Assembly (NCBI GenBank): GCA_965230295.1
Contig: OZ246001.1
Location: 3,648,001 to 3,712,000 of the forward strand
Reading direction: 5' to 3'
Origin: Marinicella sp.
GTDB lineage: Bacteria; Pseudomonadota; Gammaproteobacteria; Xanthomonadales; Marinicellaceae
DNA length: 64,000 nucleotides
Positions 2,514 to 48,465 of the stretch are shown piece by piece (the first letter of the stretch is position 1; every line of letters starts with the position of its first letter). The notes under the pieces are model-generated. The model was given only the letters and a program-made list of their open reading frames with translations. It was not told the DNA's origin and made no database searches. The position numbers and the translations under genes were made by a program.

Positions 2514-2723
2514 TGTCTAGCATGAGAAAGGGTATTGATTCATGACAATCGATGATAATAATTCATCAAGGGATTTCATAATTGCAGATTATTCAATTGG
2601 AATTGACACTATAATCACGTTCAATAATGATAATTCGCTTTATGATTCGCCAATGACATCCATAAGAAAATTGGATAACTGGTATATATTTCTAACATGC
2701 GCTACTGAATTGGATCAAATCAC

Positions 2724-8584: not shown

Positions 8585-9184
8585 TCATCCATTGATCAAC
8601 TCGTCATTTAAATGGACAGTCATCCAATCACTAAAATCCTGTTTAAACAGAAATACAGTGCATGTAGAATTTTAGGAGCGGGTGGCTGTCCTTGATGAGG
8701 AAAGTTACCGTCCAACAGTGTATAATCATATGAAACACTATAAAGGAATGTTCTTGGGGCTTTACTGCAATTGTTCCAAACAATTCTCTGCATTCACCCC
8801 GTCCTGGGGATCGATGCGGTAGCTGCCGAGGTGAACATGACAGGCTACCTCGCACGCACTACGGCATTCAAATCGGGCTTCTTTATCTTCGATAAAACCG
8901 CCAACCTTTCATCACCTGCGCTGCCTAACCGGTTCGGTGGGTCATGCTGCTCAGCAGCTTTCCTACTACTAAAGGGCTCAAACAGTTTATGTTTCATGAG
9001 GAGAATAGGGCGAGTCTACTTGATGACAATAAAGATTTTCCCAAGTGTATTTCGTCGCATTTCTATGTCAGTTCATCCCATTGACATTGATGTTGTCTAT
9101 CAGGATTTTTAAGATCATTTTATTCAGCCATCGTGATTGACTGAATATGCCATGAAACAGATAAATGTGCGGGAGGATATTCAA

Positions 9185-18903: not shown

Positions 18904-20112
18904 ATGTCCAAAAGATATCTGATTACCTACAAAGAACAGAAAATAAATACCAAAACAGCCTCAAATTTGCTTGAGATGAGTGAGCAGGATTTTGATGCTG
19001 GCATCGGCATGTTGGCTGAAGGTCGCATGCAAGAAGACACACCAGTGCATCTGGATAAACTGAGCATCAGCGTGGTTTCACTTGAGGAAAGTGAGGTGAA
19101 GAAACTGTCTGCAAAGGACGAGATATTGGCCATTGAGGAAGATGTTGAAGTACGAATCCTTGGGTTTGAGTCTGAAAATGAGGAGGAAGAAAACCAACGG
19201 GTATTGGCCCATTTAAAAGAAGGAGAGTTGGCTGAACAAGTGTTGTGGAACATCGAACATGTGAAAGCGCCCGATGCATGGGCCGAAGGCATAGACGGTA
19301 GTGGCATTAACCTGGCGATACTTGATACCGGCATCGCTGCCCATCCTGACCTTGTCATCACGGGAGGAACTTCATTTGTGTCTGATGTGACGAACCCCAG
19401 CTACGATGACCAAAATGGGCATGGCACCCATTGTGCTGGCATTGCAGCTGGGAGAAGGGGGCTTAATGGTGTCTATGGCGTGGCCAAAAACTGCAACCTT
19501 TTTGCCGTCAAAGTATTGAACCAACATGGTAGTGGTAGCTTCTCAAGCATATTTGCTGGCATGAACTGGTGTATTGAAAATGAAATTCATGTGGCCAGCA
19601 TGAGTCTGGGGGCCAACTCGGTCCCGTCAGTGGCCGCTGCAAATGCGGTGAAAAACTGCCAAGACAATGGTGTCACTGTGGTGGTTGCTGCCGGCAATTC
19701 ATACCAATCAGCATTCCCATGGGTTGGCACCCCAGCCAACTCTTATATGCAGGGTGATGTGGCAGCCAGTCCAATTGCTGTGGCAGCCGTTGACAGAAAC
19801 AACCAAGTGGCACCCTTTTCATCCAGAGGAGCGCAACACAATGATCCTCGCTGGAATCAGGTCAATGTATCAGCACCTGGGGTCAACATTTACTCCACGT
19901 ACTTGAATAATGGCTACAAAGTGTTAAGTGGCACCAGCATGGCCTGTCCGCATGTGGCTGGGATGGCCGCACTGATTTATCAAAAACACAGTGGTCATGT
20001 TTCACCGCATACAGTCAAGCAGAAAATTCTGAATACCGCGCATAATCTCGGCCCCGCACCATACCCCAATGAGGCCTATGGTTTTGGACTGATTGACTGC
20101 AGTGGACTATAA
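18904..20112 (+). CDS. S8 subtilisin-like serine peptidase with N-terminal propeptide and no obvious signal peptide
   Basis: Catalytic triad motifs LDTG, HGTHCAG and GTSMACPH; oxyanion AAGN; AAGGAG RBS. Confidence 0.95.
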   Translation: MSKRYLITYKEQKINTKTASNLLEMSEQDFDAGIGMLAEGRMQEDTPVHLDKLSISVVSLEESEVKKLSAKDEILAIEEDVEVRILGFESENEEEENQRVLAHLKEGELAEQVLWNIEHVKAPDAWAEGIDGSGINLAILDTGIAAHPDLVITGGTSFVSDVTNPSYDDQNGHGTHCAGIAAGRRGLNGVYGVAKNCNLFAVKVLNQHGSGSFSSIFAGMNWCIENEIHVASMSLGANSVPSVAAANAVKNCQDNGVTVVVAAGNSYQSAFPWVGTPANSYMQGDVAASPIAVAAVDRNNQVAPFSSRGAQHNDPRWNQVNVSAPGVNIYSTYLNNGYKVLSGTSMACPHVAGMAALIYQKHSGHVSPHTVKQKILNTAHNLGPAPYPNEAYGFGLIDCSGL

Positions 20113-23543: not shown

Positions 23544-26219
23544 ATGCATTTCAAAAAACTTTCACTGAATTTCTATTTAGTTTTACTCACAATAATTATT
23601 ACTGCTGTTTTAACTGTCAAAATTTTAGTTGCCAAACCAGTTCTTAGTAAAAACGAGATGGTCAGCGATTTTGATCAACTTATTACCTATATCAATGATT
23701 TTGGAGTACATAAAGACATTAACCAGATACGATTGAACATTGATTATCAAAAAATATATTCAGATTTAAGAAAGCAAATCACAAAGAATACAGATATTTG
23801 TGAGTTCAGAGAAATTCTTGAGAAGACTATCAACTGGGTTCAAGATGGGCACGCATCTTCTATGGATTATGAGTATCTATCCAATTACGGCAAATATCAA
23901 AGTAAGTACAATTTTACAAATGATGAAAAGTTCAAGGATGTTAAAACCATCGAGAAGCATTGTGATTCGAAAGCCCCTTCTTTGACCTTGCCTATACACT
24001 ACATTGATGGAAAGTATCATTTCTTTACTGATTTCAAATACCAAGGAAATGAAATTAATGTTGGTGATTATATAACGCATTACAACGCAGTTCCGATTGA
24101 CTATTTTGTCAGTAATAACTTAGATAAAATTAGCCCGGTGAGATGGGATGCACAGAAAAACGAAACCTACCACCCTTCTTTCTATAAATTTGGAGACGCT
24201 GTGTTTGATTTGAAAATTCAATCAAATGGAGAGGAAAAAAATATCCGTTTTGATTTAAATACAGAGTCATCATATAAGGAAGAATCGAATAGATATAAAT
24301 ATTACTCTCAAAAAGAAGCCAATGTATTTGCTCTGGATGACGGTGATCTTTTGTATATTTCAATCCCTTCAATGGATTTGAAATTGGCTGAGGTCATTAT
24401 GACAAAAGTTGAGAAACTTTATAAAAAGCACAAAGAGTTTGGGAAAATTGTGATTGATATCAGAGGAAACCCTGGTGGAAATGATCAGACATGGCATGAA
24501 ATCTTGTCTGAACTGATCAGCCAACCTATTACACTGAAGCTGGATTTAAGATTCAAACACACCGAAGACTCAATAGAGAAATATGCTGAAACTGCCGATA
24601 AAAATAGTCAATGGTATCGTGACAAGCATGATACAACCCCAATTGAAATTGATATCCTCAACAACAACAAATATTGGATAGTTGATAGCAAAGAATTGAG
24701 TCTTCCGCCAAAAAATAATTCATATAAGCATCAAGGAAAAATATTTATATTACAAGACCGATACATCTATTCTTCCGCCACAAATTTGTCGAGAGCCAGT
24801 CTGTTTAGTGATCAATTGATCTCAATAGGTGAGTCCACTGATTTGATAGGAGGCATTCAAACAGAACCTTTGTTTATCAAACTGAATCATTCAGGAATCG
24901 TCTTTAGGATCGAACCATTATTAGATTTTTCTGGTGTGAGTAAATTCGAGGACTTGTTCCATAACAAAGTAGAAGTGCCGAGGTTTTATACATCACAAGA
25001 ATTACACCAAAGACAGGAAAGCAAAGAAGATGTTTTTGGTCAAAGCTATTTAGAGCAACATGATCCGTTCATAAAATTAATTAAGGCTCATGACGGTATA
25101 GTTGATGACTTTGCCGAAATTTCTAATGTAGGCAGAAAAGAAGCCATATCTAGGTGGTTCGAATCAATCAATGAAAGTGACTTGGAGGGACTAGAGGCTT
25201 TATACGATTCAGAAAATTATGATATAGGGGATTTTATTGCTTATGGTCAGATGGTTGGTGGCCTGACGCCAAAGTTGATTTCCTATCAGTCGGGCCCTGA
25301 ATATGGAATCTATGCAACAGAAAACAATTCAAACAATTGGGTCTTGGTTGGTTTAGGTTTTGATGGCGAAAAAATTATACACACTGATGTTAAAAAGAAA
25401 TCTAAACCAGTTCTCTCCCGGCAGACAAGGCTCAGTGATGAAAGTGCTAAGATAAAAATTATCAACCATATTTCTGACCAAATTCTCAATAATTATGCCA
25501 ACGAGAAAGTCAGAAACTCGTTGGCGAATGATATAAAAAATCTTGCCAATGATAGAAGTTTAACATTGACCAGACACAATGATCTGTTTGCCAAAAAAGT
25601 TACTGTGAAACTCCGCGAAATATCCAATGATAAACATTTGGAATTGGTTTCACCTATTCAAATACAGGCCATAAACAAAAGGTTCCATTCTGAATCGAGT
25701 GTACAAGACCCAAATGAGACCTTTTTTATTTATGAAAAAAAAGAAGGTTTACCAATAATTTCCATCAATAGATTCTCAGACATTGATGCTTTTAAATCTC
25801 AAGCTGTTGCGGTCTTTTCAAAACTCAATGAATCTGAAGCAAGCTTTGTCATTAATTTGATCAATGGTGAAGGAGGAGACAAAACTGCTGTTAATTATGT
25901 TATACAACTGATTGAATCTCTAGACTCATTTAGAAATAGAAAGTTTGCAGTTTTGTTAGGGAAGAAAACATTCTCAGCATCCGAATATTTGGCCTATTAT
26001 TCAAAAATTAATTGGAGCAACTCTGTCAGAATTGGACAGAGCACAGCTGGGGCAGGGTATCAAGTTGACGCATTTCCAGTTGGCGCTGGGTTTTATTTTG
26101 TCAACTCAGTAAAAAACCCTCTTGGTGATGCGAGTTGGGAAGGAAAAGGCATTTCTCCTGACATCATTGTTCCTGAGGAAAATGCAACAGAAAAGGCAAT
26201 AAACTTTCTGAATCAATAA
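23544..26219 (+). CDS. S41 family peptidase with two tandem S41 domains
   Basis: First domain IDIRGNPGG/YSSAT/IGEST; second IRBP-like domain DKHL, NGEGG, TFSASE, IGQSTAG, WEGKGISPDI. Confidence 0.8.
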   Translation: MHFKKLSLNFYLVLLTIIITAVLTVKILVAKPVLSKNEMVSDFDQLITYINDFGVHKDINQIRLNIDYQKIYSDLRKQITKNTDICEFREILEKTINWVQDGHASSMDYEYLSNYGKYQSKYNFTNDEKFKDVKTIEKHCDSKAPSLTLPIHYIDGKYHFFTDFKYQGNEINVGDYITHYNAVPIDYFVSNNLDKISPVRWDAQKNETYHPSFYKFGDAVFDLKIQSNGEEKNIRFDLNTESSYKEESNRYKYYSQKEANVFALDDGDLLYISIPSMDLKLAEVIMTKVEKLYKKHKEFGKIVIDIRGNPGGNDQTWHEILSELISQPITLKLDLRFKHTEDSIEKYAETADKNSQWYRDKHDTTPIEIDILNNNKYWIVDSKELSLPPKNNSYKHQGKIFILQDRYIYSSATNLSRASLFSDQLISIGESTDLIGGIQTEPLFIKLNHSGIVFRIEPLLDFSGVSKFEDLFHNKVEVPRFYTSQELHQRQESKEDVFGQSYLEQHDPFIKLIKAHDGIVDDFAEISNVGRKEAISRWFESINESDLEGLEALYDSENYDIGDFIAYGQMVGGLTPKLISYQSGPEYGIYATENNSNNWVLVGLGFDGEKIIHTDVKKKSKPVLSRQTRLSDESAKIKIINHISDQILNNYANEKVRNSLANDIKNLANDRSLTLTRHNDLFAKKVTVKLREISNDKHLELVSPIQIQAINKRFHSESSVQDPNETFFIYEKKEGLPIISINRFSDIDAFKSQAVAVFSKLNESEASFVINLINGEGGDKTAVNYVIQLIESLDSFRNRKFAVLLGKKTFSASEYLAYYSKINWSNSVRIGQSTAGAGYQVDAFPVGAGFYFVNSVKNPLGDASWEGKGISPDIIVPEENATEKAINFLNQ

Positions 26220-28591: not shown

Positions 28592-28654
28592 AAACACCCC
28601 TTTCTAAAACTTACAATTAAATCAATTGAAGAATTGGTGTTGCTGAAATTAGAG

Positions 28655-28685
28655 GCTAATGGTGGATTTACAAATGCGAATGGTG
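28655..28685 (-). promoter_or_regulatory. Putative LytTR direct-repeat box CACCATT(C/A)GC, 21 bp period
   Basis: gctaatggtg at 28655 and gcgaatggtg at 28676, between the 28591 gene and the divergent LytS/LytTR pair. Confidence 0.6.
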
Positions 28686-28720
28686 TCTATCAAACTAAAA
28701 TAGCATGTAAAATGGTTAAT

Positions 28721-29845
28721 ATGTATTTGAAGAAAAATAGAAACTTGAATCCAAGTGTTATGACTGGGGTATTCATGTTATTACTTTTTATACCTTATTG
28801 GGTGTCCTATGCGGTCTTGGTTTACACTTCAAACAGGAACAGGCCTGGTTACGAAATTGAGGTTTTTGGTGCACTCGAATATGCATTTGTCTCTATGGGA
28901 TTGGCTTTTGCTTTTGGCCTGATAGGCTATATAAGAGTTTTCCATATAAAATTCAAACCCAGTTCTTTTTTAGCTGTTGCTACAGTTGAGCTGATTAACC
29001 TTTCAATATTTTTGGTGTTATGGATAGGGGTCACAGAATTCGTTTCGATGTACCTATTTTATGGATTTGATGCCAAAGAAATGGGGCTTATACCATTGCT
29101 GGGGTTTGTCATAGAAAATACTGGACGAGTATACAGTGGTGTTTTTTTATATTTTTCCTTTATGGGCATGATATATGCTTATAACTATTACAGGCGTCAG
29201 ATGTCAGCTTTAAAGAAAGCACGGGAAGCAGACCGGTTGGCAGCAGAACTCAAATTGAAATCCATCATGAACTATACACAACCACATTTCTTTTTTAACT
29301 GTATCAGTTCCATCAGTGAGCTTGTGCATATAGACGCTAAAAAAGCAGATGATGCGTTGCATAACCTGTCTGGGATTCTGCGATACTTAATAGATACCAA
29401 AAAACAATTACACAGTATTGCGGATGAAATGAATTTAACGCATAGATATATAGAGCTGCAGCGGCTGAGATTTGGAGAGAAAATAAAATATTCTGAAGAC
29501 ATAGACACAGACCTTATTGGGTTTGAGATACCGATATTGTCAATACAGTTATTGATAGAAAACTCAATCCAGCATGCAAAGAGTGGCATTAAATCTGATT
29601 CGATAAAAGCCAATGAAGAAACACACGTTCATCTCCAAATAATGAAAGATGAAAGAATCGTTACGATCACCGTATGTGACAATGGAGCCATTAATTCATT
29701 CAAACCTGCTAAAGGCAGCGGAATGTCAATGCTGGTTGAAAGGATCGAAGCAGTATATGAAGAATCATCTTTCAAACATGGTTTTATGGATAAAACTGTA
29801 ATGGGAAAACCTGGTTACCAGTCAGAAATTCATATTTACACATGA
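28721..29845 (+). CDS. LytS/YehU-type sensor histidine kinase
   Basis: N-terminal TM helices; QPHFFFN, LSGILRY, YIELQRLRFG, QLLIENSIQH, DNG and GSG motifs. Start codon uncertain. Confidence 0.9.
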   Translation: MYLKKNRNLNPSVMTGVFMLLLFIPYWVSYAVLVYTSNRNRPGYEIEVFGALEYAFVSMGLAFAFGLIGYIRVFHIKFKPSSFLAVATVELINLSIFLVLWIGVTEFVSMYLFYGFDAKEMGLIPLLGFVIENTGRVYSGVFLYFSFMGMIYAYNYYRRQMSALKKAREADRLAAELKLKSIMNYTQPHFFFNCISSISELVHIDAKKADDALHNLSGILRYLIDTKKQLHSIADEMNLTHRYIELQRLRFGEKIKYSEDIDTDLIGFEIPILSIQLLIENSIQHAKSGIKSDSIKANEETHVHLQIMKDERIVTITVCDNGAINSFKPAKGSGMSMLVERIEAVYEESSFKHGFMDKTVMGKPGYQSEIHIYT

Positions 29846-30564
29846 AAATTAAACCAATTCATGCTGTAGTTGTAGAAGATGAGCATTTATCACGTCACCG
29901 CCTGTGTCGATTGATTAGAGAAGATGGCCGTATCAAACTCATTGGAGAATATGAGAATGCTGAAGAATTGTTCAGTAGTGATGAGTTGAACACAGCTGAC
30001 ATTTTATTCCTTGATATTAATTTGCCTGGCATGAACGGAATTGATTTGGCAAAAAAACTCAATGAAAAACAACTGGTGATTTATACCACAGCTTATCCTC
30101 AATATGCAGTTGATGCATTTTCTGTCAATGCCAGCGACTATCTCGTGAAACCCATCAGTCAGGAAGATGTCTCAAAATCGATCAAGCGTGCACTTTCCAT
30201 TCTTAAATTAAATTTCTTCTATGATAAAAACAAAAATCCGAAATACATATTTATCAAACATGGACTCAATAACATTAAAATTTATCATCAGGATATTTAT
30301 TGCATTAAATCTGATAACAACCATGTGAAAATCCATACTCATGAGCACGAGTACCTGATAAAAACGAGTCTTCAGTCATTAGAAGAAACCTTCAATGGTG
30401 ATGACTTCATGCGAACGCACAGGACTTGTATTGTTAACATCAACAAAATTCATAAAATCATTCCTTCAGGTTCAACGAAGGTGGCTGTATTAGACAATCA
30501 GACCATTGCTCCTTTATCCAGGGGATTTTGGTCAAAATACAGTCATTTACTCAATGATTTGTAA
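29842..30564 (+). CDS. LytTR family response regulator
   Basis: Receiver VEDE/FLDINLPGMNG/TTAY/KP; LytTR FMRTHRTCIVN; ATGA overlap with the kinase. Confidence 0.93.
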   Translation: MKIKPIHAVVVEDEHLSRHRLCRLIREDGRIKLIGEYENAEELFSSDELNTADILFLDINLPGMNGIDLAKKLNEKQLVIYTTAYPQYAVDAFSVNASDYLVKPISQEDVSKSIKRALSILKLNFFYDKNKNPKYIFIKHGLNNIKIYHQDIYCIKSDNNHVKIHTHEHEYLIKTSLQSLEETFNGDDFMRTHRTCIVNINKIHKIIPSGSTKVAVLDNQTIAPLSRGFWSKYSHLLNDL

Positions 30565-30929
30565 TGACATTTGATCAAGAAAACTAGCCCGCTCACACTG
30601 AGCATTTGATAATTGTCAATTCAGCTTCATTAATGAGATTATTTATCTGAGTTAACTGATCATATTCTATTTCCCATAACTTGCTTTCAATCATTTATCC
30701 CAGGCATATAAGAGTAATGGAGAGAACCCCATACTTTTTACGAAGCGATTAGTGTTGCTGTTGAATCATGCCTTTAATGTGCCTAATACTTTCATGCCTT
30801 AGCGAGCATATCAGTTAAATAATTAGTCGAATCTACTCTTCACATGCTTTGTCTGACAGTTGGCATTTATAAGAGAAATAAAAGTTAAAAGCCAGTGATA
30901 CCTTGGGTATGTCTTGATAGTTAAGAGGT

Positions 30930-32828
30930 GTGACTTTGAAACTCAAATATTTATTTCCATTAATTTTAGGCGCTTTTATTAATGATACCAATGGGGCTCA
31001 ATTTGTTCAAAATCTAGAATTTGATGGGAAAGATGAGCTACAGAAATATGATTTTGGTGCAAATAACAAAATCAGTTATCAGTATTCAAGTTTTGGAGTA
31101 CTGGACACGATACATTTAGTTAATAAAACTGCCGGTAATTCAGAACCATTGATCCGAAAAATTGAATACCATGCTGACGGAAGTATAAAGAAAATTCATC
31201 TTGGTGGAAGTGATTATCCAATTGTATTGAATGACATAGACAAAATTGGACGTTTAGTCTACAAAGCCACAAGTATCTTGGAAGAAGGTGCTTCGAGTAG
31301 GACCATGTTAGACAGAGTATATGGAATCATTAGAGATTCTTTTGGAAATATTTTGAACTTGAAAAAATGGGATTTATATCATGATAATGTATTAACTCGT
31401 TATATTTACTCTGACGAAAATCAGTTGATTAAGGTTATCGGTGATGAGCAAAACAGTTGGGGATATGTTTATGATATTAACGGCAACATCATTAGATCAG
31501 GTAAGTTAAATCCTCTTACCGAAACCATTGCCAGTGACTTCCAGGATTTTGGGCCTTACACACAAACAAACAACAGGGATGTTAATTTTGCATATGATGA
31601 TGAAGGGAGGATTATTAAAGATGATAAATTCATCTTTTCTTACAACAGAAACGGAAGGCTTGAGTGGATTAGAGAGATACATACAGGAGACTGGATTGAA
31701 CATTACCTATATGACGTGAATGGATATAGAGTTAGAAAGACTACGACAGATTATGTGATTTATTACAATCGTGATTTCAATGGAAGGGTAGTGCAAGCAA
31801 AAATGGTTTCTCAAACTGGAGAACAACTCAGTCAAATAAATAATTATTACCATGGAGGCAATTTATTATTTAGAGAAATAGAAACAAGCGACTCAACGGA
31901 AAGTCAGTGGTTTGCAAGTGACTATCTCCTTTCTAATGTGGTTTCATGGAATGATCAGGTCATCACCCAGCGCAAAACGTCTCCATATGGTGTTCAGAAT
32001 GAACCAACCGATGACATTGGCTTTACAGGACATGAACATGACATCTTGACCAAGAATATTTACATGAAAGCAAGGTATTATGATCCTGAACGTGGCAGGT
32101 TCATGACACCAGATCCGATTAGAGACACAAATAGTTATATTTCTGCGACAAACAACCTGTATCAATATGCGTTAAATAATCCAGTTAATAAAATAGACCT
32201 CACGGGTCAATATTCAGATGACCCGCCGTCGCAAGTTAATTCTGAAGATGATCCGCCGCCTCCATACAGGCGCAGCAAAGCCAATCCAAGAGCACAAAGA
32301 GTTGCAAACGAGAAATCATTTAAAAAGTGGCTGGCCGAAAATGATCCTTCTGGTCTGATGTTTTTTGAACAAATGGAAGTGAAGCAGCACCAGTGGGAAA
32401 TAGAAAAATATTTGAATGATGTTGGTGCAAACCCCAAGAACCCGCCTTTGGCAGTTAAGTTGGCCATTTGGCTTTTTATTGATAAAAATGCCCATTCAGA
32501 CTGGGAGAGATGGACTATTGAAAGTGACGAAAACTCAAAAAGAGAAGCACAGTGGTATGGGTTTATTAATAAAGCAAAACTCTCGAAAGGAACAACTTTT
32601 GTATATGAGGCATTGCCAACTTCAATGGGAGGTTGGACTCCTGAATATGCAGCATTCGTAAAAGAAAGACATTCAATCTTGGAGAAAAAACATTTTAAAA
32701 CATATAGGCAAGGACAAGCAATGGGTAAAACTGCAAATGTTATTACATTTGCAGGCTTGCCAATACCCGGTGTAGATGAAAGGTTGAAACTGGTTGGGGC
32801 AATACTGATTGAATTGATAACAGATTAA
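30930..32828 (+). CDS. Short secreted Rhs protein: distal YD repeats, Rhs core and ~205 aa C-terminal tip
   Basis: Signal-like N terminus; YD repeats; SPYG, GFTGHEHD, YMKARYYDPERGRFMTPDP and NLYQYALNNPVNKIDLTG. Confidence 0.9.
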   Translation: MTLKLKYLFPLILGAFINDTNGAQFVQNLEFDGKDELQKYDFGANNKISYQYSSFGVLDTIHLVNKTAGNSEPLIRKIEYHADGSIKKIHLGGSDYPIVLNDIDKIGRLVYKATSILEEGASSRTMLDRVYGIIRDSFGNILNLKKWDLYHDNVLTRYIYSDENQLIKVIGDEQNSWGYVYDINGNIIRSGKLNPLTETIASDFQDFGPYTQTNNRDVNFAYDDEGRIIKDDKFIFSYNRNGRLEWIREIHTGDWIEHYLYDVNGYRVRKTTTDYVIYYNRDFNGRVVQAKMVSQTGEQLSQINNYYHGGNLLFREIETSDSTESQWFASDYLLSNVVSWNDQVITQRKTSPYGVQNEPTDDIGFTGHEHDILTKNIYMKARYYDPERGRFMTPDPIRDTNSYISATNNLYQYALNNPVNKIDLTGQYSDDPPSQVNSEDDPPPPYRRSKANPRAQRVANEKSFKKWLAENDPSGLMFFEQMEVKQHQWEIEKYLNDVGANPKNPPLAVKLAIWLFIDKNAHSDWERWTIESDENSKREAQWYGFINKAKLSKGTTFVYEALPTSMGGWTPEYAAFVKERHSILEKKHFKTYRQGQAMGKTANVITFAGLPIPGVDERLKLVGAILIELITD

Positions 32829-35800
32829 TGGATAAGGTAATGATAAAAATTAAATTAATAAAAAGTAAGCTGTTGGCCATGGTGCTGATAATGATAGTTC
32901 CATTTTCAAATTCGTACTCAGAAATTCACTCGCTCACATCGGCTTCGAATCAAATTGGTGAAACTTCTTCAATGAAAGGAGTTAAGTATAATGAGTATTC
33001 TGGTGCAATCAAAATAATTGGTGAATCATTGAAGTTCAAAGAGCTTAGGTTGCCTATCACTTTTTCACAGTCTGATGAGCAAAAATATACCAGATTGGGA
33101 ATGAACAATGATATTCCTGTTTCTTATGGAAATGAACATTTTGTTTTAAGCGAAACATTTGCGGCAGGATGGGATATTGGTTTTGGCTATCTTCAAGTGA
33201 AAAGGCCAAAAACTGAGCAAACCATAACCGATTGCACTGAGCTCGCAACACTGGATCCAAGTTTAGAATGCTCGGCTGCCAGAGGTCTTATCGAATACAT
33301 TTCTCCTGAAGGTGGTAGAAGTGAATTTGTGAGAGATTATTTGTTTACTGATTATGAATCAGAAACAGAACAAATAATTGGCGATGTGCGATTTATAGAT
33401 AAAAATTTAAGAAGAATATTAACTTCAAAAAGTTCAAGTACTCATTTCACAAGTAACTCGTATTTAATGCTTTTACCTGATGGTAAGAAAATTGTTTTTG
33501 AACCTGTTTTTCAACTGGCAGAAAATGACCCTGAATTAAGCGTGATGAGGTTTTACCCTACTCAAATCATTTCTCCTATTGGAGAAGAGTTTAAAATAAA
33601 GTATTTAAATGGTCTTAGAAAAGAGTTACCAGCAAATTTCGATTCATCTACATTGGCTGAAAATCTCAATACCAACCAATTGTTACAACTGGATTTTTTT
33701 AATTCACGGATATCGGAAGTTTCTGACAATACCGGCAGGAAAATATTAATCAACTACTCTGAATACCCTGTTACTGATTCTCCTCTTAAAAACCTGAGAC
33801 CGAAGGAGATTTTTCTAGATAACAGTCCCACCCCTGTAAGGACTTTTGAATACGGGGTTATTAAAGTTGGAACCATGGATATCAACCATGTGGTTTTGAA
33901 AAGCATTACTTACAAAGATGGCAATGTTAAAAGTTTCGATTTTGAGAATGATCCCGGGTCCATTTACTCCAGCGGGAACAAAGCAAGACCCTATTTAAAT
34001 CGTTCCTATAACAGTGATGGGTCGTATGTGGAAATTGAATACAGTCCCTTGTCTGACAAATACTGCGAAATTCAAAGAACAGGTTTTTCAACAGGTCTGG
34101 TGAAATCTATATTAACCACGAAAATTGACTCTATTAAGGCGTATGATGCCAACAGCGTTTTGGATAAAGGCTATGAGTTCAGTTATATTGAAAACACTGG
34201 GCTGAACTTAAATGATCATTTCATTATCACAAAATCTTCTTTGGATGATACTGAACTTGTTACAACAAGTTATTTATCAGAACCGGTAGGGGAGACTTTT
34301 GACTGCATGAGTGGACAAGGAAACAGTGCAATTTGTTGTGATGTGAAAGTAGGAAATCAATCAGGTAATTCGGTTTTTCAGTATCTAACAACGGCACGGA
34401 AACAGGTTAATGGTTCAAAAATATCAAGAGTAACAAAATATATTAATAATGAAAATCAAAGCTCCAGCATGACTGAGAAGTGGTACTACATCAATGACAT
34501 GCGTTATGTGGGAAATGACCAGATCACTCCTATCTTTTCAAACAACTCATTACCAGTAAATAGAATTATCCAGGATAACGGGATTTTGGCACCTGGCCCT
34601 TTTCTGAAACAGTACTCATTTAAATATGATAATGCTTATAAATATGATAACAGTGAAATTTGGCACAATAAAAAATACACATATTTTTTTGATGAAGATC
34701 AAAGTGTACTTCATGGTTCCTCAGAGCTATCTATTAGAGACATGCTGAAAGTGTCAGATGAGACGAGTTGGGTGGAAAAAAAGCAAGCTGGTGTTGATCC
34801 TTCATTTCAACCGTCGACACAAAATTTGATAACTAAATTTCATTTTGACAATACAGTGAAGCATGAGCCTGATGATTTTGTGATAGATGAGTTTAAGTAT
34901 TGGTTCAATGACTATAACCAAAAAGAAGTTTTATATAACTTTATCAATATGAATCTAAGCCCTGTCAGTGCGCTCATATCAAAAACGGAAAGAAACTATC
35001 ACCCAGATTTTCCCAGAACCACAGAGTTTATCAACTATTCACTCGAAAACGAACAGACATCGCTGCACACAGAATATTACGACAGTTCCACAGGTCATCA
35101 GAAGAATGATGAACATTTTGGGTTCCCCATATACACGTATAGAACCAATGATTTATTTAAAGATTATTATAAAGATTATAAATATGGATTACCAAAAACG
35201 ACAATCAACAATCAGAATGCTACAGATGGGTCTGAAAATTTAGTGCTCTCTGATTTCAACCATGAAGGTCAACTATCAGTACATGCAAGTAATGGTGAAG
35301 TTAAAAAGTACGATTATGGATTGGATGGAAGGGTTACTCAGATTGACTCTGGAACGGCTGTGATCAGCTATCAATATAACGAGCCAAATAGTGAAGATTT
35401 GTGGGTTAAAACATCTAAAGATGGTGTGTTGATAGAGCAGGTGGATTTTGATCACTTCAAACGTGTCGTCAAGAAGTCAACAATGTTTCATGATAATTCC
35501 GTTCACTTGACAATCAATGAATATGACAGCGCTGGCAGATTAATCGGTTTGACTAATCCACTTGGCGGTTTTCATAAAAATGTATACGATGTCACAGGAA
35601 GGTTAATCAAAAAAGAACATTATGATAAAAATTGTAATTTGCATTCAGATTGCAATTTAATGAAAAGCGAATTGATCAATTATGATTACACACAGGAATT
35701 TCCCTATTATGAGACTACGGAAACCATTACATATGAAAACGGTTCTGAATTCAAAGTTATCAGAATTGAAGAAAATGATTTGATTGGAAGACCTATTAAA

Positions 35801-38800
35801 ACGCAGTCAATGAAAGAATCTGTGAGTTCAAATCAAAGGTCAGAGATTACTGGAACGGAGTTTTCTTATGATTACCGAAACTCAAGTGAAGATGGTTCTA
35901 ATTCAAAACTACATGTCTCAAAACAGAAATCTATTTTAAATCCCTTAATGGTGCGTGAGTTTGGGTATGATTTAATAAACCAAACAAGATGGGAAAAACA
36001 CCCTGAGATTAACCAGAATGATGTTGTTTCTTATAAATATAATAACAAGGGGATGCTTGTACAAAAAGATACCCCTGCTAAATCATTCACATTTGAATAT
36101 GATGCTGCTCACAGGCTAGTAGGCGTAAAAGATGAACTGGATGAAGAAAATAATCTGATTGATTTTATATATGATGAATTCAATAATGTTGTTGAACAGT
36201 CTATAAATCTATATGGAAAAAAAGTAAAAACCATATTTGAAAATTTTGATGAGAATAATAGACCAGGTAAAGTCATCACAGAAATTCCTGATGTTTTACC
36301 TCCAGCTACAGATTTATTTCCTGATAAATACTGGTTACTAGCACCAACATTAAACCTGAATTGGGATCCAAACCCGGCTGATTCCTATACCGTGTTACTC
36401 AAAAGATCAGATGCCAATATGGCATTAAGGTTTGAGTCTTTGTTACAAGATGACATCAGAATCACTCCCGAAAAGATCATTTCCTCAATAAGAGATATTA
36501 AACGAGATCATAGATTTGAAGCCACAAAATATGAGCAAGCTTTGGGTGAAGGATATTTGTTAAAACCGGAATTTTCTTATTCGTGGAGGGTATTATCAAA
36601 TTCAAATAATGGAGAGCCTATTTTTCCCAGTGAATGGATTCCTTTAACAAATCCCATCAATCCAAGCGACTGTCATATTGGTTTCTTTAACGTAGAAAAT
36701 GGGTTGAATGAGGGAGCGCTGGTTGAATGGGAAGCCAGGAACTGCGATAAAAACCTACATGTTTTGCAAGTTTTTGCTTCTACTGCAAATGACAGTGAGA
36801 TATCCGGTGAATGTCAGTTTGACAATGCGGAGTATTCAGCACATATGGTAGGCCGTGAAAGAGCATTGTTTATGTTGAATGGCTACGACATGGTGGATGG
36901 GATGCCTGTATTCGCTGCGAATCCTGCATCACCACAATGCAGCGGTGTAAATAGTGCTGAATTCTGGGCTGTATTGAAGGACAAAACATCTGGCGAAATC
37001 ATTCATGAATGGTCGAGAAGAGAAGGGCGTGTCATCAGTGGTCAGGTTTGTTCTCTTAGAAATGTAAATGTGATTCATGGCCTTTCTGGCAGAGCACCGA
37101 TCATCAGTTGGTATGCAGAGAATTGTGACAATAACACTTTGCAGGTTTTGGTAGACAGTCAATACAATTCAGAACGACCCGAATGTCTGTTGGAGAAATG
37201 GCATTGGATAGAAGCAGAACAACTTGGAATGGATGGACAAATCAGGGCTCACTTCATGTCAGAAGGTTATCAAAACAACGATGGTATAGCTTGCCCGCCC
37301 ATTGAAAAGACATCGTTATTGGTTAGAATTTTGGATGATTCTCAAAATGTTGTTGAAAGGTATCCATTTGAAGTGTTTGCATATCCAGACGATAGCCAAT
37401 GCAGGACACGTATTTTTAATGGTGGTTCAGCGCCAGGAATCGCACCATTAGTGGAGTGGGAAACCATTAACTGTGATGACTATGATGTAAGAGTGACACG
37501 AACCAGCGTTGGCGGAGTAGAGGACAGTCAATGCTTTTTACATAAAAACATCTGGAGTACTGTCAAAACTGGACCCAAGTTCGCTACATTCATGACAGAA
37601 GGCTTCGATAGAATTGGAACATTCTGCGAACCCCAGTATGAAATAGACTTCACGATTGAAGTGCTGGATCCCAATACAGGCTTAAGAATCAATGAGAATG
37701 ACAGTTACCACACATTAAGGGTTCAAACCAAAGGGCTTGAATACTCTGATTCTCAGGAGTGCCATATATTAAATTATGGCGTTTTCGATGGTTATGCCAA
37801 CTCGTCACCGATGGTTTCATGGAGCACAACTCCTGGCTGCGCCGGTGGAAAAGTAAATCTTAAAATCAACAGCTTACACCCGAACCCATCTGAAGGACTG
37901 GATCCGGTTTGTGAATTGAATGATGTCACCTGGCTTAGCCAACATTATGGTCCTGCTGCATTAGAGTTCGCAACTGTCGGTTATGATCAGAATTTTATAG
38001 ATGATGGCACACCAGGTTATCGATGCCCTAAAGACAATAATAATCAGACCACGACAATCAATGAATATGAAGTATGGGTTGAGGTAGTCAACAGTTTTGG
38101 GCATGTGGTCACTCAAACTGATAAAAAACCAGTTTACTACGAACCTCATATCAATCAAAACAACACAGGAGTTTGCTCGATCACACCAAATTCATTTGAA
38201 ATAATCAGCCAGGGTGGAGGTAATAACGCCCCAGCCATCAACTGGCAAACAGACTGTAATGTTGGTGGTAGGTATTCGGTCAATGTGTTGGCCAGTTCAC
38301 TGAGTGATGATGATCCAAACCCTCAACCCAGCAGGAACATGTTTGAGATAGCTGGTGCGCCATTTAATATTACACTTCCTGATTTATGTGGTTTCCAAAA
38401 TGTAACATTTGCTGCAGATGTGATGGGACCAAGACCTGCGTACTTTTTGAGGAATGGTTACCACAGCTACAGACACGACCACGAAAATATTTGTAATACG
38501 CACTCTGCTAAATTCCAGGTAGTCATTACAGATACAGTGACTGGAAATGTTATTGACATGACAGAACCATTACTGGTCAGCTATCAGGGTGAATATTCAA
38601 AAGATCCGTTGGTGGATAATTGTTTCCAGGACAGTTGCCATGAGCTGGATGATGATGCTAATACAAGTCTTTCTCAACCAGACAGTGGTTCAACAGCTGG
38701 TGTAATAGATAATCCTATTGCTACAGTGCAAGGCGTTGACTTGGTTGTTTCTCACTTATCCATATCAAATATCAATCCTTTCGTTGGAGATGAAGTGACG

Positions 38801-39484
38801 GTGAACTGGAAGATATTTAACAATGGAACTCAAACAGCTACATCTACTGACGTTTACTTTCAATTAAAGGGATACAGTAGTGCTTTACATGATATGACTG
38901 GAGTGATTGCACCACAACAAGAAGTTTCAATGAGTAAGACATTCATTGTGCCCGATGATTGGAGGGGCAGTGAAACAGTCTATGTGAAAGTAAATCACTC
39001 ACAAAGCTTATCAGAATCAAATTATGCAAACAACCTCGCTTTTTTATACCTTAATATCAGTGAGATGTTACCTGATATTGAGGTTGGGCTTTTTGAAATA
39101 ACTGGAGTTGATAGCATCAGTTTTACAAAAGCCATGAAGTGCTGGGACAGGGAAAACCCTATTTTACTCAATGCAGGTGGCACCTTAAGAATGTATGGTA
39201 CGATAATAAATGAAGGTATAATTTCTGTTCAAGAACAACAACATGCAGATAAATTCTTTGGGTACGATTTAACAAGTAATCAACCTTTAACCAATGTTCA
39301 GTTTCTCAATTTACCCGCAATTGATGTGGGCGAAATTGTATCAACTCCTTTAGAATTTACATTACCTAACAGTTTAAGTTCAGGCAATCTGATTAGGCTG
39401 GTTTATTTAGCTGACTATGCCAACCAAATCGCTGAAATAGATGAACTGAATAATGGTGCGGTTTGTTATTTAAAAATTCAATAA
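32828..39484 (+). CDS. Giant secreted YD-repeat protein lacking an Rhs core, with an Fn3-like domain, five 4-Cys repeats and two CARDB-like domains
   Basis: Signal peptide; AAGW N-terminal shell motif; YDSAGRL, YDVTGRL, YDAAHRL; CARDB DLVVS...NNG...SESNYANN and PDIEV...IAEIDELNN; no DPxG core. Confidence 0.85.
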   Translation: MDKVMIKIKLIKSKLLAMVLIMIVPFSNSYSEIHSLTSASNQIGETSSMKGVKYNEYSGAIKIIGESLKFKELRLPITFSQSDEQKYTRLGMNNDIPVSYGNEHFVLSETFAAGWDIGFGYLQVKRPKTEQTITDCTELATLDPSLECSAARGLIEYISPEGGRSEFVRDYLFTDYESETEQIIGDVRFIDKNLRRILTSKSSSTHFTSNSYLMLLPDGKKIVFEPVFQLAENDPELSVMRFYPTQIISPIGEEFKIKYLNGLRKELPANFDSSTLAENLNTNQLLQLDFFNSRISEVSDNTGRKILINYSEYPVTDSPLKNLRPKEIFLDNSPTPVRTFEYGVIKVGTMDINHVVLKSITYKDGNVKSFDFENDPGSIYSSGNKARPYLNRSYNSDGSYVEIEYSPLSDKYCEIQRTGFSTGLVKSILTTKIDSIKAYDANSVLDKGYEFSYIENTGLNLNDHFIITKSSLDDTELVTTSYLSEPVGETFDCMSGQGNSAICCDVKVGNQSGNSVFQYLTTARKQVNGSKISRVTKYINNENQSSSMTEKWYYINDMRYVGNDQITPIFSNNSLPVNRIIQDNGILAPGPFLKQYSFKYDNAYKYDNSEIWHNKKYTYFFDEDQSVLHGSSELSIRDMLKVSDETSWVEKKQAGVDPSFQPSTQNLITKFHFDNTVKHEPDDFVIDEFKYWFNDYNQKEVLYNFINMNLSPVSALISKTERNYHPDFPRTTEFINYSLENEQTSLHTEYYDSSTGHQKNDEHFGFPIYTYRTNDLFKDYYKDYKYGLPKTTINNQNATDGSENLVLSDFNHEGQLSVHASNGEVKKYDYGLDGRVTQIDSGTAVISYQYNEPNSEDLWVKTSKDGVLIEQVDFDHFKRVVKKSTMFHDNSVHLTINEYDSAGRLIGLTNPLGGFHKNVYDVTGRLIKKEHYDKNCNLHSDCNLMKSELINYDYTQEFPYYETTETITYENGSEFKVIRIEENDLIGRPIKTQSMKESVSSNQRSEITGTEFSYDYRNSSEDGSNSKLHVSKQKSILNPLMVREFGYDLINQTRWEKHPEINQNDVVSYKYNNKGMLVQKDTPAKSFTFEYDAAHRLVGVKDELDEENNLIDFIYDEFNNVVEQSINLYGKKVKTIFENFDENNRPGKVITEIPDVLPPATDLFPDKYWLLAPTLNLNWDPNPADSYTVLLKRSDANMALRFESLLQDDIRITPEKIISSIRDIKRDHRFEATKYEQALGEGYLLKPEFSYSWRVLSNSNNGEPIFPSEWIPLTNPINPSDCHIGFFNVENGLNEGALVEWEARNCDKNLHVLQVFASTANDSEISGECQFDNAEYSAHMVGRERALFMLNGYDMVDGMPVFAANPASPQCSGVNSAEFWAVLKDKTSGEIIHEWSRREGRVISGQVCSLRNVNVIHGLSGRAPIISWYAENCDNNTLQVLVDSQYNSERPECLLEKWHWIEAEQLGMDGQIRAHFMSEGYQNNDGIACPPIEKTSLLVRILDDSQNVVERYPFEVFAYPDDSQCRTRIFNGGSAPGIAPLVEWETINCDDYDVRVTRTSVGGVEDSQCFLHKNIWSTVKTGPKFATFMTEGFDRIGTFCEPQYEIDFTIEVLDPNTGLRINENDSYHTLRVQTKGLEYSDSQECHILNYGVFDGYANSSPMVSWSTTPGCAGGKVNLKINSLHPNPSEGLDPVCELNDVTWLSQHYGPAALEFATVGYDQNFIDDGTPGYRCPKDNNNQTTTINEYEVWVEVVNSFGHVVTQTDKKPVYYEPHINQNNTGVCSITPNSFEIISQGGGNNAPAINWQTDCNVGGRYSVNVLASSLSDDDPNPQPSRNMFEIAGAPFNITLPDLCGFQNVTFAADVMGPRPAYFLRNGYHSYRHDHENICNTHSAKFQVVITDTVTGNVIDMTEPLLVSYQGEYSKDPLVDNCFQDSCHELDDDANTSLSQPDSGSTAGVIDNPIATVQGVDLVVSHLSISNINPFVGDEVTVNWKIFNNGTQTATSTDVYFQLKGYSSALHDMTGVIAPQQEVSMSKTFIVPDDWRGSETVYVKVNHSQSLSESNYANNLAFLYLNISEMLPDIEVGLFEITGVDSISFTKAMKCWDRENPILLNAGGTLRMYGTIINEGIISVQEQQHADKFFGYDLTSNQPLTNVQFLNLPAIDVGEIVSTPLEFTLPNSLSSGNLIRLVYLADYANQIAEIDELNNGAVCYLKIQ
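36671..38590 (+). repeat. Five degenerate ~115-140 aa Cys-containing protein repeats
   Basis: Units begin at Cys codons 36671, 37049, 37400, 37760 and 38174; pattern C...G..(A)P.(I/V).W...C...C...G...A.F...GY...C...(V/I).D. Confidence 0.75.
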
Positions 39485-39501
39485 AATTTGATAGGACTAG
39501 G

Positions 39502-39532
39502 TTAACTGCTGGTCACATAAACCGGCAGTTAA
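39502..39532 (+). terminator. Probable intrinsic terminator of the Rhs operon
   Basis: Hairpin ttaactgctggt/accggcagttaa just after the stop codon. Confidence 0.6.
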
Positions 39533-39731
39533 TTCCTACTTGCATTAAAATTTCATTGAATAAAATATTTCTCTCAATTTTTTAAATTAAAAGGGCAGAT
39601 TTAATTGAAACAGAGAATTATCTAGACTCGAATTTTTATATGCTACAAAGAATAGGGTAATGTGAATCTTTGATTTAATAACGTCCTTTAATTTCATATC
39701 CTTGCTATATAACCATCTCAACCTTTTATCC

Positions 39732-39777
39732 TTGACATAAATAGACACTGTCAATAATATAGTTGCATATTGCAACC
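39732..39777 (+). promoter_or_regulatory. Sigma70 promoter (TTGACA-17-TAATAT) and MarR operator GTTGCA-N3-TGCAAC
   Basis: -35 at 39732, -10 at 39755, palindrome at 39762-39776. Confidence 0.7.
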
Positions 39778-39788
39778 AATACCTAGAT

Positions 39789-40232
39789 ATGATCAACCAA
39801 TCAATAGAATATAACTCAACCTCAAGGCTGGTGAGTCTTTTGGAAAGACACTCTATTGCACACTTAAAAAGATCTTTGAGCTCCAGTAACTTAAATATCA
39901 CTGTGGAGGAATGGAAGGTATTGTTTTACTTGTGGTATGAAGATGGTTTGAATCAAAATGACATAGCTGCTCGAGCCAATAAAGAAAAAAGTACGATCAC
40001 CAGAAAGATTGATTCACTTGAGAAAAAAGGGTTTGTGAAGAGGATTACGTGTGATTCTGATGCCAGAAACAAAAAAATTGAGCTGACAGAAAAAGGGAAA
40101 TCAATAGAACAACAATCGATGGATTTGGCCAATGAAATCACACTATCTATGGAGCAAGGTATTCCCGATAATGAGATTTTATTCTTCAAAAAAATTCTGA
40201 AATCAATGATCGGAAATTTACAGCTTAATTGA
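39789..40232 (+). CDS. MarR family transcriptional regulator
   Basis: ITVEEWKVL, KSTITRKIDSLEKKGFV and DARNKKIELTEKG. Confidence 0.93.
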   Translation: MINQSIEYNSTSRLVSLLERHSIAHLKRSLSSSNLNITVEEWKVLFYLWYEDGLNQNDIAARANKEKSTITRKIDSLEKKGFVKRITCDSDARNKKIELTEKGKSIEQQSMDLANEITLSMEQGIPDNEILFFKKILKSMIGNLQLN

Positions 40233-46532: not shown

Positions 46533-47183
46533 TCATTCAAAGCCATCCCTGAAGATCAAATCAAGGTCATCGATAAACTCAAAATCATCTATGGCGACAT
46601 CACCTTCGCTCCCTGTTCCTGAGTGGACATGACGGAATCGCAGAAAAATCGATTGGGGTACAAAATCTGTGAGATCAACAGTCATCTTTTGCCACAGGTC
46701 AATGTTGTCACTAATGGGTTGTATGACATCAATTTGAATGGGGTTAAGCCCTGCATTCAATACATCGATATGGAGTAAGCCAACGTCCTGTCCAAACATG
46801 TGATACCAGAAAGACGCTTGCGGATTTTGGGTGTTGCTCAGCTCCAAAAAGGGGGAGATTAAAATGCTGACACCCATTTCATTAGAGCAGGGTGATGAGA
46901 CGGAGTGAACATACAAGTAAAACCCAGATTCATCCCCCGTCGTGTGATCAACATCCGGGCCAGAATTGGGTGAGGCGGTCGGCCCTTTGTTAGCCAACCA
47001 GTCTTTGTCATCAAAAAGATCCTCATTGAACCAGCCCAACGCATTGATTGGGCATGAGACTGTACAGTCATCTATACAGCCCGACTCTGATTCAAAGTCT
47101 TCGAAATAGGGCGGCACAACCGCTTGCACCTTCGTCACATATCCCAAGAACACGATCAATACGACTGTGGTTTTGAAATTCAT
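46533..47183 (-). CDS. Secreted MAM-domain protein with C-terminal DLIFRDGFE tail
   Basis: DW....GPT.SP.SGPDVDHT, GFYLY, LISP, FWYHMFG and GDVAIDDF are MAM hallmarks. Confidence 0.8.
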   Translation of the reverse strand: MNFKTTVVLIVFLGYVTKVQAVVPPYFEDFESESGCIDDCTVSCPINALGWFNEDLFDDKDWLANKGPTASPNSGPDVDHTTGDESGFYLYVHSVSSPCSNEMGVSILISPFLELSNTQNPQASFWYHMFGQDVGLLHIDVLNAGLNPIQIDVIQPISDNIDLWQKMTVDLTDFVPQSIFLRFRHVHSGTGSEGDVAIDDFEFIDDLDLIFRDGFE

Positions 47184-47307
47184 ATCCACACCCCGAAAAT
47201 TGTTTATTAGTTTGGTATTCAAAAAGAGTATTTGTAGTATAGCAAGCCATTACTTTAATATAAAAAATTGGATCAGTAGTTCAAATCACTTATAAAAGTT
47301 ATTTCTA

Positions 47308-48465
47308 ATGAAAAATATCAGTTTAATACTTGTTCGTGTTTCTTTACTCATTGTCATGGTTATCGCAGGATTCTTGGCCTTGTTCCCTGAATGGTGGGAC
47401 TTGCGTGACATGCATGCCTCATCCCAATCAAACAAGCCAAGCACCCACCTGCAATCAGATCAGGTTGACCTGGCTGCTTCAGAACAACTCCAAACATTGC
47501 ATACTGAAAACCCGCAGGAAGCAGCTGCAGAGAGTAAGGAAATAAAATCATCATTTGATCTTCAACAAGTGAAACTGGAAGAACCCAAACAGACGCCTGA
47601 GAAAAGGCCAATGAGCTATAAAGCGTCAGCTACAGCATTTCCAGATGCATCATTCAGATCCTGTGTTGAATTCAGAATGCGCAGAGAAGGTGTTCTGGAC
47701 CCTTCTGATATCACCAGAATGGACTGTAGTTACAAAGAGGTCTCAGATGTCACTGGTCTGGACCAATTAGCTGCCCTAGAAGAATTAATCCTACAAGGGG
47801 TTGATGTTGAATTCATAAAATTGGGGCAACACCCTAAATTGAGAAGCATTCTGATCACCGAAACGGCTGTCAAGAGCCTTGATCTGACTCATGTTCACAG
47901 CTTGCAATCATTGAATGTCAGTCGTAATAGAGGCCTTAAAGAAGTGGATCTGCCAGTACAAAACACCATCAAACGATTGGTCCTGGATACCAATGCTTTG
48001 AGTGCTATCCATGTGCCCGACAGCGAGATAACACAGTTCATCTATCTACAAAAGAATCAATTGGAATCAGTGCATTTAGGCCATATGCCTCAGATCAAAA
48101 AGCTGGATGTCAGCCACAATCAGTTGTTAAGTCTAGATACATCTCATATGGCATCATTATCCAGTTTGATGGCAATACACAATCAATTGACCACAATAGA
48201 CATCAGCCAAAACAAACAGTTGAGTGAACTATTGATCGCTCAAAACAACATCCAAGAGTTGGATTTATCTGATCACCGAGAAATCAAAGAACTGATGTTG
48301 TTTGATAATCCAATGACACTTCCAAAAGTTAGCCATTTGAGCAAGTTGGCCGACCTGGCCATAGATGAAGCCCAGTATCAGGAAATGAAACAATCAAAAA
48401 CTGTCCTACCCTTTGAAGCAAAAGTCACCAAAATGAAACATGTGCAGATATTAAGAAAAAAATGA
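47308..48465 (+). CDS. Membrane-anchored leucine-rich repeat (internalin-like) protein
   Basis: N-terminal TM, FPDASFRSCV cap, LxxLxLxxNxL repeats. Confidence 0.85.
   Translation: MKNISLILVRVSLLIVMVIAGFLALFPEWWDLRDMHASSQSNKPSTHLQSDQVDLAASEQLQTLHTENPQEAAAESKEIKSSFDLQQVKLEEPKQTPEKRPMSYKASATAFPDASFRSCVEFRMRREGVLDPSDITRMDCSYKEVSDVTGLDQLAALEELILQGVDVEFIKLGQHPKLRSILITETAVKSLDLTHVHSLQSLNVSRNRGLKEVDLPVQNTIKRLVLDTNALSAIHVPDSEITQFIYLQKNQLESVHLGHMPQIKKLDVSHNQLLSLDTSHMASLSSLMAIHNQLTTIDISQNKQLSELLIAQNNIQELDLSDHREIKELMLFDNPMTLPKVSHLSKLADLAIDEAQYQEMKQSKTVLPFEAKVTKMKHVQILRKK

Follow-up and report, generated by a model that had tools for sequence, protein, structure and literature searches.

Organization of the locus

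In a stretch of 64,000 nucleotides (nt) from Marinicella sp. (NCBI GenBank assembly GCA_965230295.1, contig OZ246001.1, positions 3,648,001 to 3,712,000 of the forward strand; hereafter the window) we investigated two adjacent genes, A and B, which encode parts of an Rhs/YD protein and whose products probably form the two chains of one Rhs/YD cocoon in the manner of TcB/TcC. Gene A corresponds to the open reading frame (ORF) 30930-32828 (+) with 632 amino acids (aa) and gene B to the ORF 32828-39484 (+) with 2218 aa, and in the sequence TAATG the stop codon of A and the initial ATG of B overlap. In a public protein collection the proteins have 630 and 2214 aa, which points to alternative starts at TTG 30936 for A (likely the true start) and at ATG 32840 for B; the genes are tightly linked under either pair of start codons. 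A sequence-only reading of the window had described these positions, the coupling and the domain content as we observed them in the ORF, Pfam and NCBIfam analyses, and had proposed that the two products assemble in trans.

Protein A contains the Rhs-associated core (TIGR03696, Rhs_assc_core; E 3.7e-19, 69 bits compared to a cut-off of 32.5), and its aa 157-431 match positions 627-903 of the 909 positions of the TEN_YD-shell profile PF25023 (E 8.4e-11, under the gathering score). In B, RHS/YD repeats lie at about aa 800-1100 (the families found in A and B were PF05593, TIGR01643 and PF25023), and no Rhs core was found in B by the Pfam/NCBIfam scan. The shell part of B (~1120 aa) ends at a conserved FDxxNRPxxxxxxIP motif (P1154, nucleotide 36289), in agreement with the coreless shell stop that had been placed near ~36290. 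Behind this motif B continues as an arm of 1060 aa, in which a first domain is followed by five Cys-rich modules and by two CARDB domains (PF07705, E 1.2e-14 over two stretches; aa 1971-2069 in the protein family scan). Both N termini are signal-peptide-like, as had been suggested, when judged by eye for a basic n-region, 11-12 hydrophobic residues and small residues at -1/-3. In P0004, the ortholog of A described below, the sequence AEA/RQF stands at the position aligned to NGA/QF of A. All features are listed in Table 1.

Table 1. Sequence features of genes A and B with their positions in the window
Feature	Position	Strand	Basis or remark
A, signal-peptide-like N terminus (aa 1-23)	30930..30998	+	two Lys, 11-residue hydrophobic run, ...NGA/QF
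A, distal YD-repeat shell part, 'lid' turn (aa 24-350)	30999..31979	+	PF25023
A, Rhs-associated core (aa 351-427), presumed aspartyl autoprotease plug	31980..32210	+	TIGR03696
A, variable C-terminal tip (aa 428-632, 205 aa) plus stop	32211..32828	+	no Pfam/NCBIfam family
B, signal-peptide-like N terminus (aa 1-31)	32828..32920	+	Lys-rich n-region, 12-residue hydrophobic run, SYS/E
B, N-terminal domain and proximal two thirds of the YD shell (aa 32-1154)	32921..36289	+	RHS/YD repeats, fold model
B, first arm domain (aa 1155-1279)	36290..36664	+	directly after the shell-end motif; common to arm-bearing relatives
B, five tandem Cys/Trp-rich modules of 117-160 aa each (aa 1280-1940)	36665..38647	+	cut by eye, MAFFT
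B, C-terminal region with two CARDB-type stretches (aa 1941-2218) plus stop	38648..39484	+	PF07705

A and B meet at one loop of contiguous relatives

We searched a profile of the N-terminal 1000 residues of the B-type proteins against 1.84 billion representatives and found 22 proteins at E up to 1e-3. Most of them have a signal-like N terminus (exceptions are P0141, P0143, P0150 and P0151), and N-terminal motifs are common to all 16 aligned members. Domain scans, which covered 14 of the 22 proteins plus P0130 and P0144, revealed an Rhs core in four members (P0136, P0139, P0145 and P0133). Nine members are coreless and carry an arm (P0130, P0131, P0132, P0134, P0135, P0137, P0142, P0144 and P0148), which contains Ig-like, choice-of-anchor D or CARDB domains and starts near aa 1140-1200; two of these nine, P0134 and P0135, originate from Sulfidibacter corallicola, and P0131 is 48% identical to B over the full length. 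The partial sequence P0141 shows the start of an arm in the alignment. Searches of metagenome contigs with alignments of 5 and 2 rows returned no relative, and P0134 was found in 0 of 401 Acidobacteriota genomes, a sample that does not include the Sulfidibacter genome.

Three of the core-bearing proteins (P0136, P0139 and P0145) are contiguous and armless, with a length of 1761-1787 aa, a core at about 1484-1593 and Ntox10 or Tox-REase-7 tips. We observed that these proteins match B up to residues 1069-1073 and A from residues 1259-1275 on, without overlap of the two matches, and that the distal YD part of A aligns with aa 1264-1594 of the contiguous relatives. The shell-end motif of B is present in all 16 aligned proteins and is followed by a YD repeat in the armless forms and by the arm in the others. 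The alignment of arm-bearing and armless relatives supports the proposal that the chain is broken at the point of exit of the arm from the shell. Mature A indeed begins as the usual continuation of the shell, since its N terminus and that of mature P0004 are aligned with the YD repeat that comes first behind the 'IP' of the motif. B up to P1154 and A 23-427 add up to 1559 residues, and the cores of the contiguous forms end at 1563-1593.

The fourth core-bearing protein, P0133 (2609 aa), is a single chain in which the shell is followed by an arm at the same loop, YD repeats resume near aa 1975 and the core is located at 2319-2399. The first arm domain of B is present in all arm-bearing relatives including P0133 and is absent from the armless contiguous ones. 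In a quick tree of the shells, which is unrooted and has several long branches, four armless proteins are split from 12 arm-bearing ones with 100% support in the Shimodaira-Hasegawa-like approximate likelihood ratio test (SH-aLRT), and P0133 pairs with the coreless P0148.

An orthologous pair in Aliikangiella coralliicola

Among 5.8 billion proteins the best relative of A is P0004, a protein of 585 aa from Aliikangiella coralliicola with 29% identity, which aligns with A from the signal peptide through the core and likewise shows a signal-like start followed by 'QF...'. In this Aliikangiella lid the signal peptide is followed by distal YD repeats, by a core (TIGR03696, E 2e-16) and finally by a short tip. 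At its locus (L016) we found a coreless ORF of 2551 aa (2274-9929), followed after at most 38 nt by the lid ORF of 585/590 aa. The 2551-aa protein starts with a signal peptide, lacks a core and is made up of Ig-like HYDIN/ASH/choice-of-anchor D domains in the C-terminal half. B aa 687-1195 are colinear with its aa 688-1205 (E 1e-16); this alignment passes the end of the shell and extends into the first arm domain.

The adjacent pair therefore occurs in a second genus, which answers part of an earlier proposal to look for a conserved order of A and then B: the adjacency is retained, but the Aliikangiella genes are arranged as B then A and those of the window as A then B. From this we can infer that the permutation in the window is a local rearrangement and no defining feature, contrary to the sequence-only reading, which had regarded the permuted order as a property of the system. 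The RpoB proteins of the two genomes are only 69% identical, so that the split pair with its two signal peptides has been retained across a deep divergence. A search of 40 relatives of the Aliikangiella genome returned one partial YD match only.

Structure predictions

The shell of B (aa 5-1171) was modeled with AlphaFold2 on an alignment of 20 rows. The model, in which numbering equals that of B minus 4, shows beta hairpins throughout, with a mean predicted local distance difference test (pLDDT) of 74.3 and a predicted template modeling score (pTM) of 0.74. The top Foldseek matches were Rhs effectors, a teneurin-like protein, teneurins and TcB-TcC (E 4e-27 to 1e-22), the best being 8uy4_A (E 4e-27). 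In pairwise alignments the model residues 28-1011 were superimposed on residues 272-920 of RhsA (7q97_A; Z 18.6, root mean square deviation (rmsd) 3.1 A, 583 aligned) and the model residues 46-1113, i.e. B ~50-1117, on residues 26-1633 of TcdB2-TccC3 (6h6e_F; Z 11.0, rmsd 4.1 A, 822 aligned). Model residues 55-361 aligned with the N-terminal domain of SpvB (6p0x_A; Z 9.9, rmsd 3.9 A, 215 aligned), and the teneurin-like protein (TLP) 9ifo_A was matched with Z 18.6 and rmsd 3.7 A over 499 aligned residues. These alignments indicate that B covers the front part of a complete cocoon. For A alone, the fold prediction on a 2-sequence alignment was unusable (mean pLDDT 33.4).

For the complex we used B 575-1165 (16-row alignment) together with A 24-430 (81-row alignment). 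The predicted complex reached values of 0.83, 0.80 and 0.80 in the interaction prediction score from aligned errors (ipSAE), compared to 0.00 for the best of three controls; as the halves of a split known fold tend to pass such a test, these values describe likeness and compatibility rather than binding. The mark applied to this score is reached by 58 of 80 solved complexes and by 2 of 110 mismatched pairs. At least 81% of the contacts were common to the runs, with a pLDDT of 83-85 for the partner and 74-75 for the other chain. The contacts with the lowest predicted error place B 1146-1153 antiparallel to A 24-29, the strands flanking the broken loop, so that in the prediction the last strand of B lies against the first strand of A. 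Further contacts between B 842-1135 and A 53-281 are periodic and resemble those of hairpin tips in neighboring spiral turns. Taken together, the contacts at the break and the periodic contacts match what a continuous shell predicts.

Core and tip of A

The residues D395 and D423 of A are located in invariant columns of an alignment of 81 sequences. The tip (aa 428-632) matched no Pfam or NCBIfam family, and in the search for its function the best Atlas score was 0.78, under the threshold for a lead. The tips of A and P0004 are unrelated (BLASTP E 16), and the parts upstream of them are 29% identical; this corresponds to the pattern of polymorphic toxins, in which the core is conserved and the tip behind it varies. 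The unrelated tips are also the sole hint that A may be an exchangeable lid.

Downstream of the Aliikangiella lid gene (L016:12330-16616) we observed two genes for DUF6630 proteins as well as four small ORFs (144-181 aa) that match no family, which could be immunity or orphan-cassette genes. Nothing like this gene set is found downstream of A in the window.

The arm of B

Beyond CARDB, the arm of B has no Pfam match at E up to 1, no sequence match in the PDB at E up to 0.1 and no repeats in a self-BLAST at 1e-3. Its first domain looked fn3-like by eye, judged from a conserved W/Y pattern. The five modules show pairwise identities of 20-28%, with C, W, NC, C and GY columns common to all of them in the MAFFT alignment.

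Compared to P0131, B aa 1161-1264 are 54% identical and aa 1280-1940 are 74-89% identical, whereas the shells of both proteins share 24-31%. This is the reverse of the usual pattern, in which the shell is conserved and the end is variable. The mosaic would result either from a recent exchange of the arm or from a shell that evolves much faster than the arm. We consider that the arm may serve as an adhesin or targeting device.

Probable two chains of one cocoon: proposed mechanism and alternatives

We regard it as probable that A and B are two chains of one Rhs/YD cocoon. B would contribute the closing domain at the N terminus together with roughly two thirds of the beta-spiral, and its chain would exit the shell at a hairpin loop ~400 residues before the Rhs core to continue as the arm. 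A would start on the other side of this loop and contribute the last spiral turn, the core (a presumed aspartyl autoprotease with D395/D423) and the enclosed tip of 205 aa. For the assembly in trans that had been proposed for the two products, the complementary halves and the strand pairing predicted at the break provide support in silico; the course of events after synthesis we infer. Both chains would cross the inner membrane by Sec and dock in the periplasm, where A would seal the open edge of B, enclose its own tip and cleave this tip. The folded complex might then be released by the type II secretion system (T2SS) or be kept on the surface, the arm would bind the target, and the tip would act as toxic or effector cargo. 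As for the history of the pair, an insertion followed by fission is likely: an arm would have been inserted in the shell loop, as in the single-chain P0133, fission would have occurred after the arm, and the downstream piece would have gained its own signal peptide; in the genome of the window the genes would also have been transposed.

Several observations weigh against two chains of one cocoon. The adjacent pair was confirmed in only two genomes, and members of the family are very rarely encountered: of 41 genomes 1 contains B (its own, and none of 40 relatives), B-type proteins occur in 0 of 400 other genomes of the class, and the best other match of A in the 40 relatives lies inside an ORF of 2953 aa (E 8e-18, 30% identity). 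No partners of P0131, P0132, P0134, P0135, P0137, P0142, P0144 and P0148 were found among the A-type matches considered, which in one of the searches were the best 120 of 286 from 7997 scored candidates. P0131 is as similar to B as stated above, yet the collection of 5.8 billion proteins contains no relative of A with more than 29% identity; with a shell identity of just 24-31% between P0131 and B, an equally diverged partner of P0131 could have been missed. The score of the predicted complex may be due to solved Rhs and TcB-TcC shells already known to the model. The cleavage motif of A reads DLTGQ instead of the family form DPxGL, in which the P at the second place is kept in at least 90% of 81 relatives, and self-cleavage of A may thus be altered. 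No plausible immunity-like small ORF was found beside A (30560-30935) or after B (39480-39800), and B directly follows A at the place where the cognate immunity gene is normally expected in Rhs toxins. Finally, we know of no precedent for the assembly of a two-chain Rhs shell after Sec export.

Rather unlikely, in our opinion, is that A and B are neighbors with independent functions, B being an adhesin with a YD 'cup' that is open or closed by its own arm and A a small secreted polymorphic toxin with a partial shell. The coreless shells for which no partner was found among the A-type matches considered would fit such an arrangement, as would the different order of A and B in the two genomes and the occurrence of short proteins with signal peptide, YD repeats, core and tip in unrelated lineages, for which no partner is known (P0023, P0065 and P0169). 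However, one loop of the contiguous relatives is the place at which B ends and A begins, their adjacency is retained in two genomes as distant as the RpoB comparison shows, the predicted interface would be the strand continuation itself, and no open solved YD shell is present among the fold matches, judged from the titles of the entries.

The three short Rhs proteins just mentioned have a signal-like start and ~400 aa of YD repeats, followed by the core (aa 411-520) and a tip, and they may be further 'lid-only' proteins instead of orphan cassettes. By a crude heuristic, 10 of 160 A-type matches show a signal-like start.

The pair might also be a decaying remnant of a rearranged rhs gene, a functionless fission heading to loss, which we consider quite improbable. 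None of the 40 relatives searched has the locus, its surroundings show a lower G+C content (0.35-0.40 at about 20000-42000 compared to 0.43-0.47 in the first 12 kb of the window), the DPxGL motif is degenerate and an immunity gene is missing. On the other hand, the reading frames of A and B are uninterrupted, with 632 and 2218 codons, the arm is preserved in P0131 at the high identity given above, and the same split with a downstream signal peptide is found at 24-29% identity in another genus, which requires long purifying selection after the split. For an assembly artefact, in which a conventional rhs gene was wrongly cut and permuted, we found no supporting point and give it next to no credence, since a second assembly of a run from this sample, a Logan contig of 25,476 nt, covers 29800-39754 with neither differences nor gaps, the genome consists of a single 4.0-Mb contig, the split of the Aliikangiella pair falls at the same point and A has its own signal peptide at the break; the misassembly that had been named as a possible refutation is thus very unlikely.

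Comparison with known systems

By its way of working, the TcB-TcC subcomplex of the insecticidal Tc (ABC) toxins, e.g. TcdB2-TccC3 or YenB-YenC, is the closest known system. In PMC11067744, two polypeptides are described to form one hollow RHS/YD shell, in which the TcC chain provides the last part of the shell, the autoprotease and the enclosed hypervariable cargo, and tcC genes located apart from tcB still pair with TcB. A and B are likewise predicted to build a two-chain shell with a lid that carries the core and a variable tip, and the model of B resembles the folds of TcdB2-TccC3 and of the SpvB N-terminal domain. At the sequence level, no Pfam SpvB, TcdB_toxin_mid or beta-propeller family was found in B; Pfam SpvB is present in this genome in only two other Rhs ORFs. 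A further difference is that both A and B have Sec-type signals and that an arm of 1060 aa is located at the break. For TcdB2 we take the length to be about 1470 aa and for the shell part of TcC about 680 aa. Judged from the alignment ranges and this length, the break between A and B seems to lie ~200 residues further along the shell, and the shell part of A comprises ~405 aa compared to the ~680 aa assumed for TcC.

The TcA-binding domain (PF18276) was not found in the complete genome of A and B, in a search whose control also found none in 14 genomes. The two ORFs with Pfam SpvB (C1:3225912-3232793 (+) and C1:1551084-1558118 (-)) encode single chains of 2293 and 2344 aa with a signal-like start and an Rhs core, and they look like TcB-TcC fusions in a genome in which no TcA domain was found. 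The earlier statement that Tc shells lack Sec signals proved too absolute, as these two ORFs have signal-like N termini and the TcdB/TcaC class is given with a signal peptide in Table 1 of Zhang et al. 2012. RHS toxins that carry signal peptides and are exported by Sec/T2SS form a listed class in Table 1 of PMC3482391.

With the single-chain Rhs toxins (RhsA, Tse5 and Tse15 of a secretion system of type VI (T6SS), and the Sec-exported WapA type) A and B share the YD beta-spiral, the Rhs core and the variable tip, but their shell is distributed across two genes, an arm is present in a shell loop and no immunity gene is adjacent. Moreover, the T6SS sheath (VipB/TssC) and PAAR were not found in the complete 4.0-Mb genome, and no VgrG, PAAR or TcA families were detected by Pfam among the ORFs scanned at 17.6-49.7 kb of the window, which is in line with the earlier statement that no such gene lies in the window. 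Outside of 17.6-49.7 kb, the genome-wide searches cover VipB, the TcA-binding domain and PAAR. The T2SS secretin GspD is encoded in the genome (455 bits), as are five other conventional Rhs ORFs, all with signal-like N termini.

Bacterial TLPs are described in PMC13018210 as Sec-exported YD shells with variable adhesion domains and a small polymorphic C-terminal domain; each consists of a single chain that contains an FN-plug and an NHL propeller and has the adhesion domains at the N-terminal side. TLPs and metazoan teneurins resemble B in the YD shell (9ifo_A), and Sec-type signals and adhesion-type domains are further common traits. In contrast to TLPs, A and B have no NHL family in Pfam, the arm branches off within the shell sequence and the shell is divided in two. 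A literature search with the terms 'split Rhs', 'bipartite Rhs' and 'two-component Rhs', which did not cover supplements, found neither these terms nor a description of such a pair.

To our knowledge, TcB/TcC is the only natural two-chain YD cocoon studied to date; its assembly takes place in the cytoplasm, and it depends on TcA. If A and B form one cocoon, they would represent a second, independent split of the cocoon, with the break elsewhere, both chains exported by Sec and an arm at the break, and the YD shell would be completed in trans outside the cytoplasm. A loop of the shell would tolerate an insertion of 1000 residues, and short 'Rhs C-terminal' genes, which are usually taken for orphan cassettes, might be working lids. 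As single-chain, arm-inserted and split members exist side by side, the order of the gene-fission events is directly testable. Only tentatively we propose a distinct class of two-component YD-cocoon toxins, a possibility we would call doubtful at present. Such toxins would be independent of TcA and the T6SS, exported by Sec/T2SS and mostly marine or host-associated; the Ig-like arm would be the receptor-binding module, exchangeable lids would dock in the periplasm and arms would move horizontally between divergent shells. With lids as exchangeable carriers, P0023, P0065 and P0169 would be members of this class awaiting their shells.

Genomic context

Directly upstream of A and on the same strand (28634-30564 (+)) we observed a His_kinase gene and a Response_reg+LytTR gene, and it is possible that this LytTR two-component pair regulates A and B. 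Promoter-like sites were not more frequent than in shuffled sequences (10 found compared to 10.9 expected), and neither the junction of A and B nor the sequence immediately behind B contains a terminator on the + strand. The window is devoid of tRNA genes, and the scanned ORFs include no integrase; the region of lower G+C content may be an acquired island without recognisable borders. An S8 subtilase (18904-20112 (+)) and an S41 peptidase of 891 aa (23544-26219 (+)) are encoded upstream in the low-G+C stretch. Further downstream, the gene for a MAM-domain protein (46533-47222 (-)) adjoins that for a leucine-rich-repeat protein (47308-48465 (+)), and these eukaryote-like domains fit a host-associated lifestyle.

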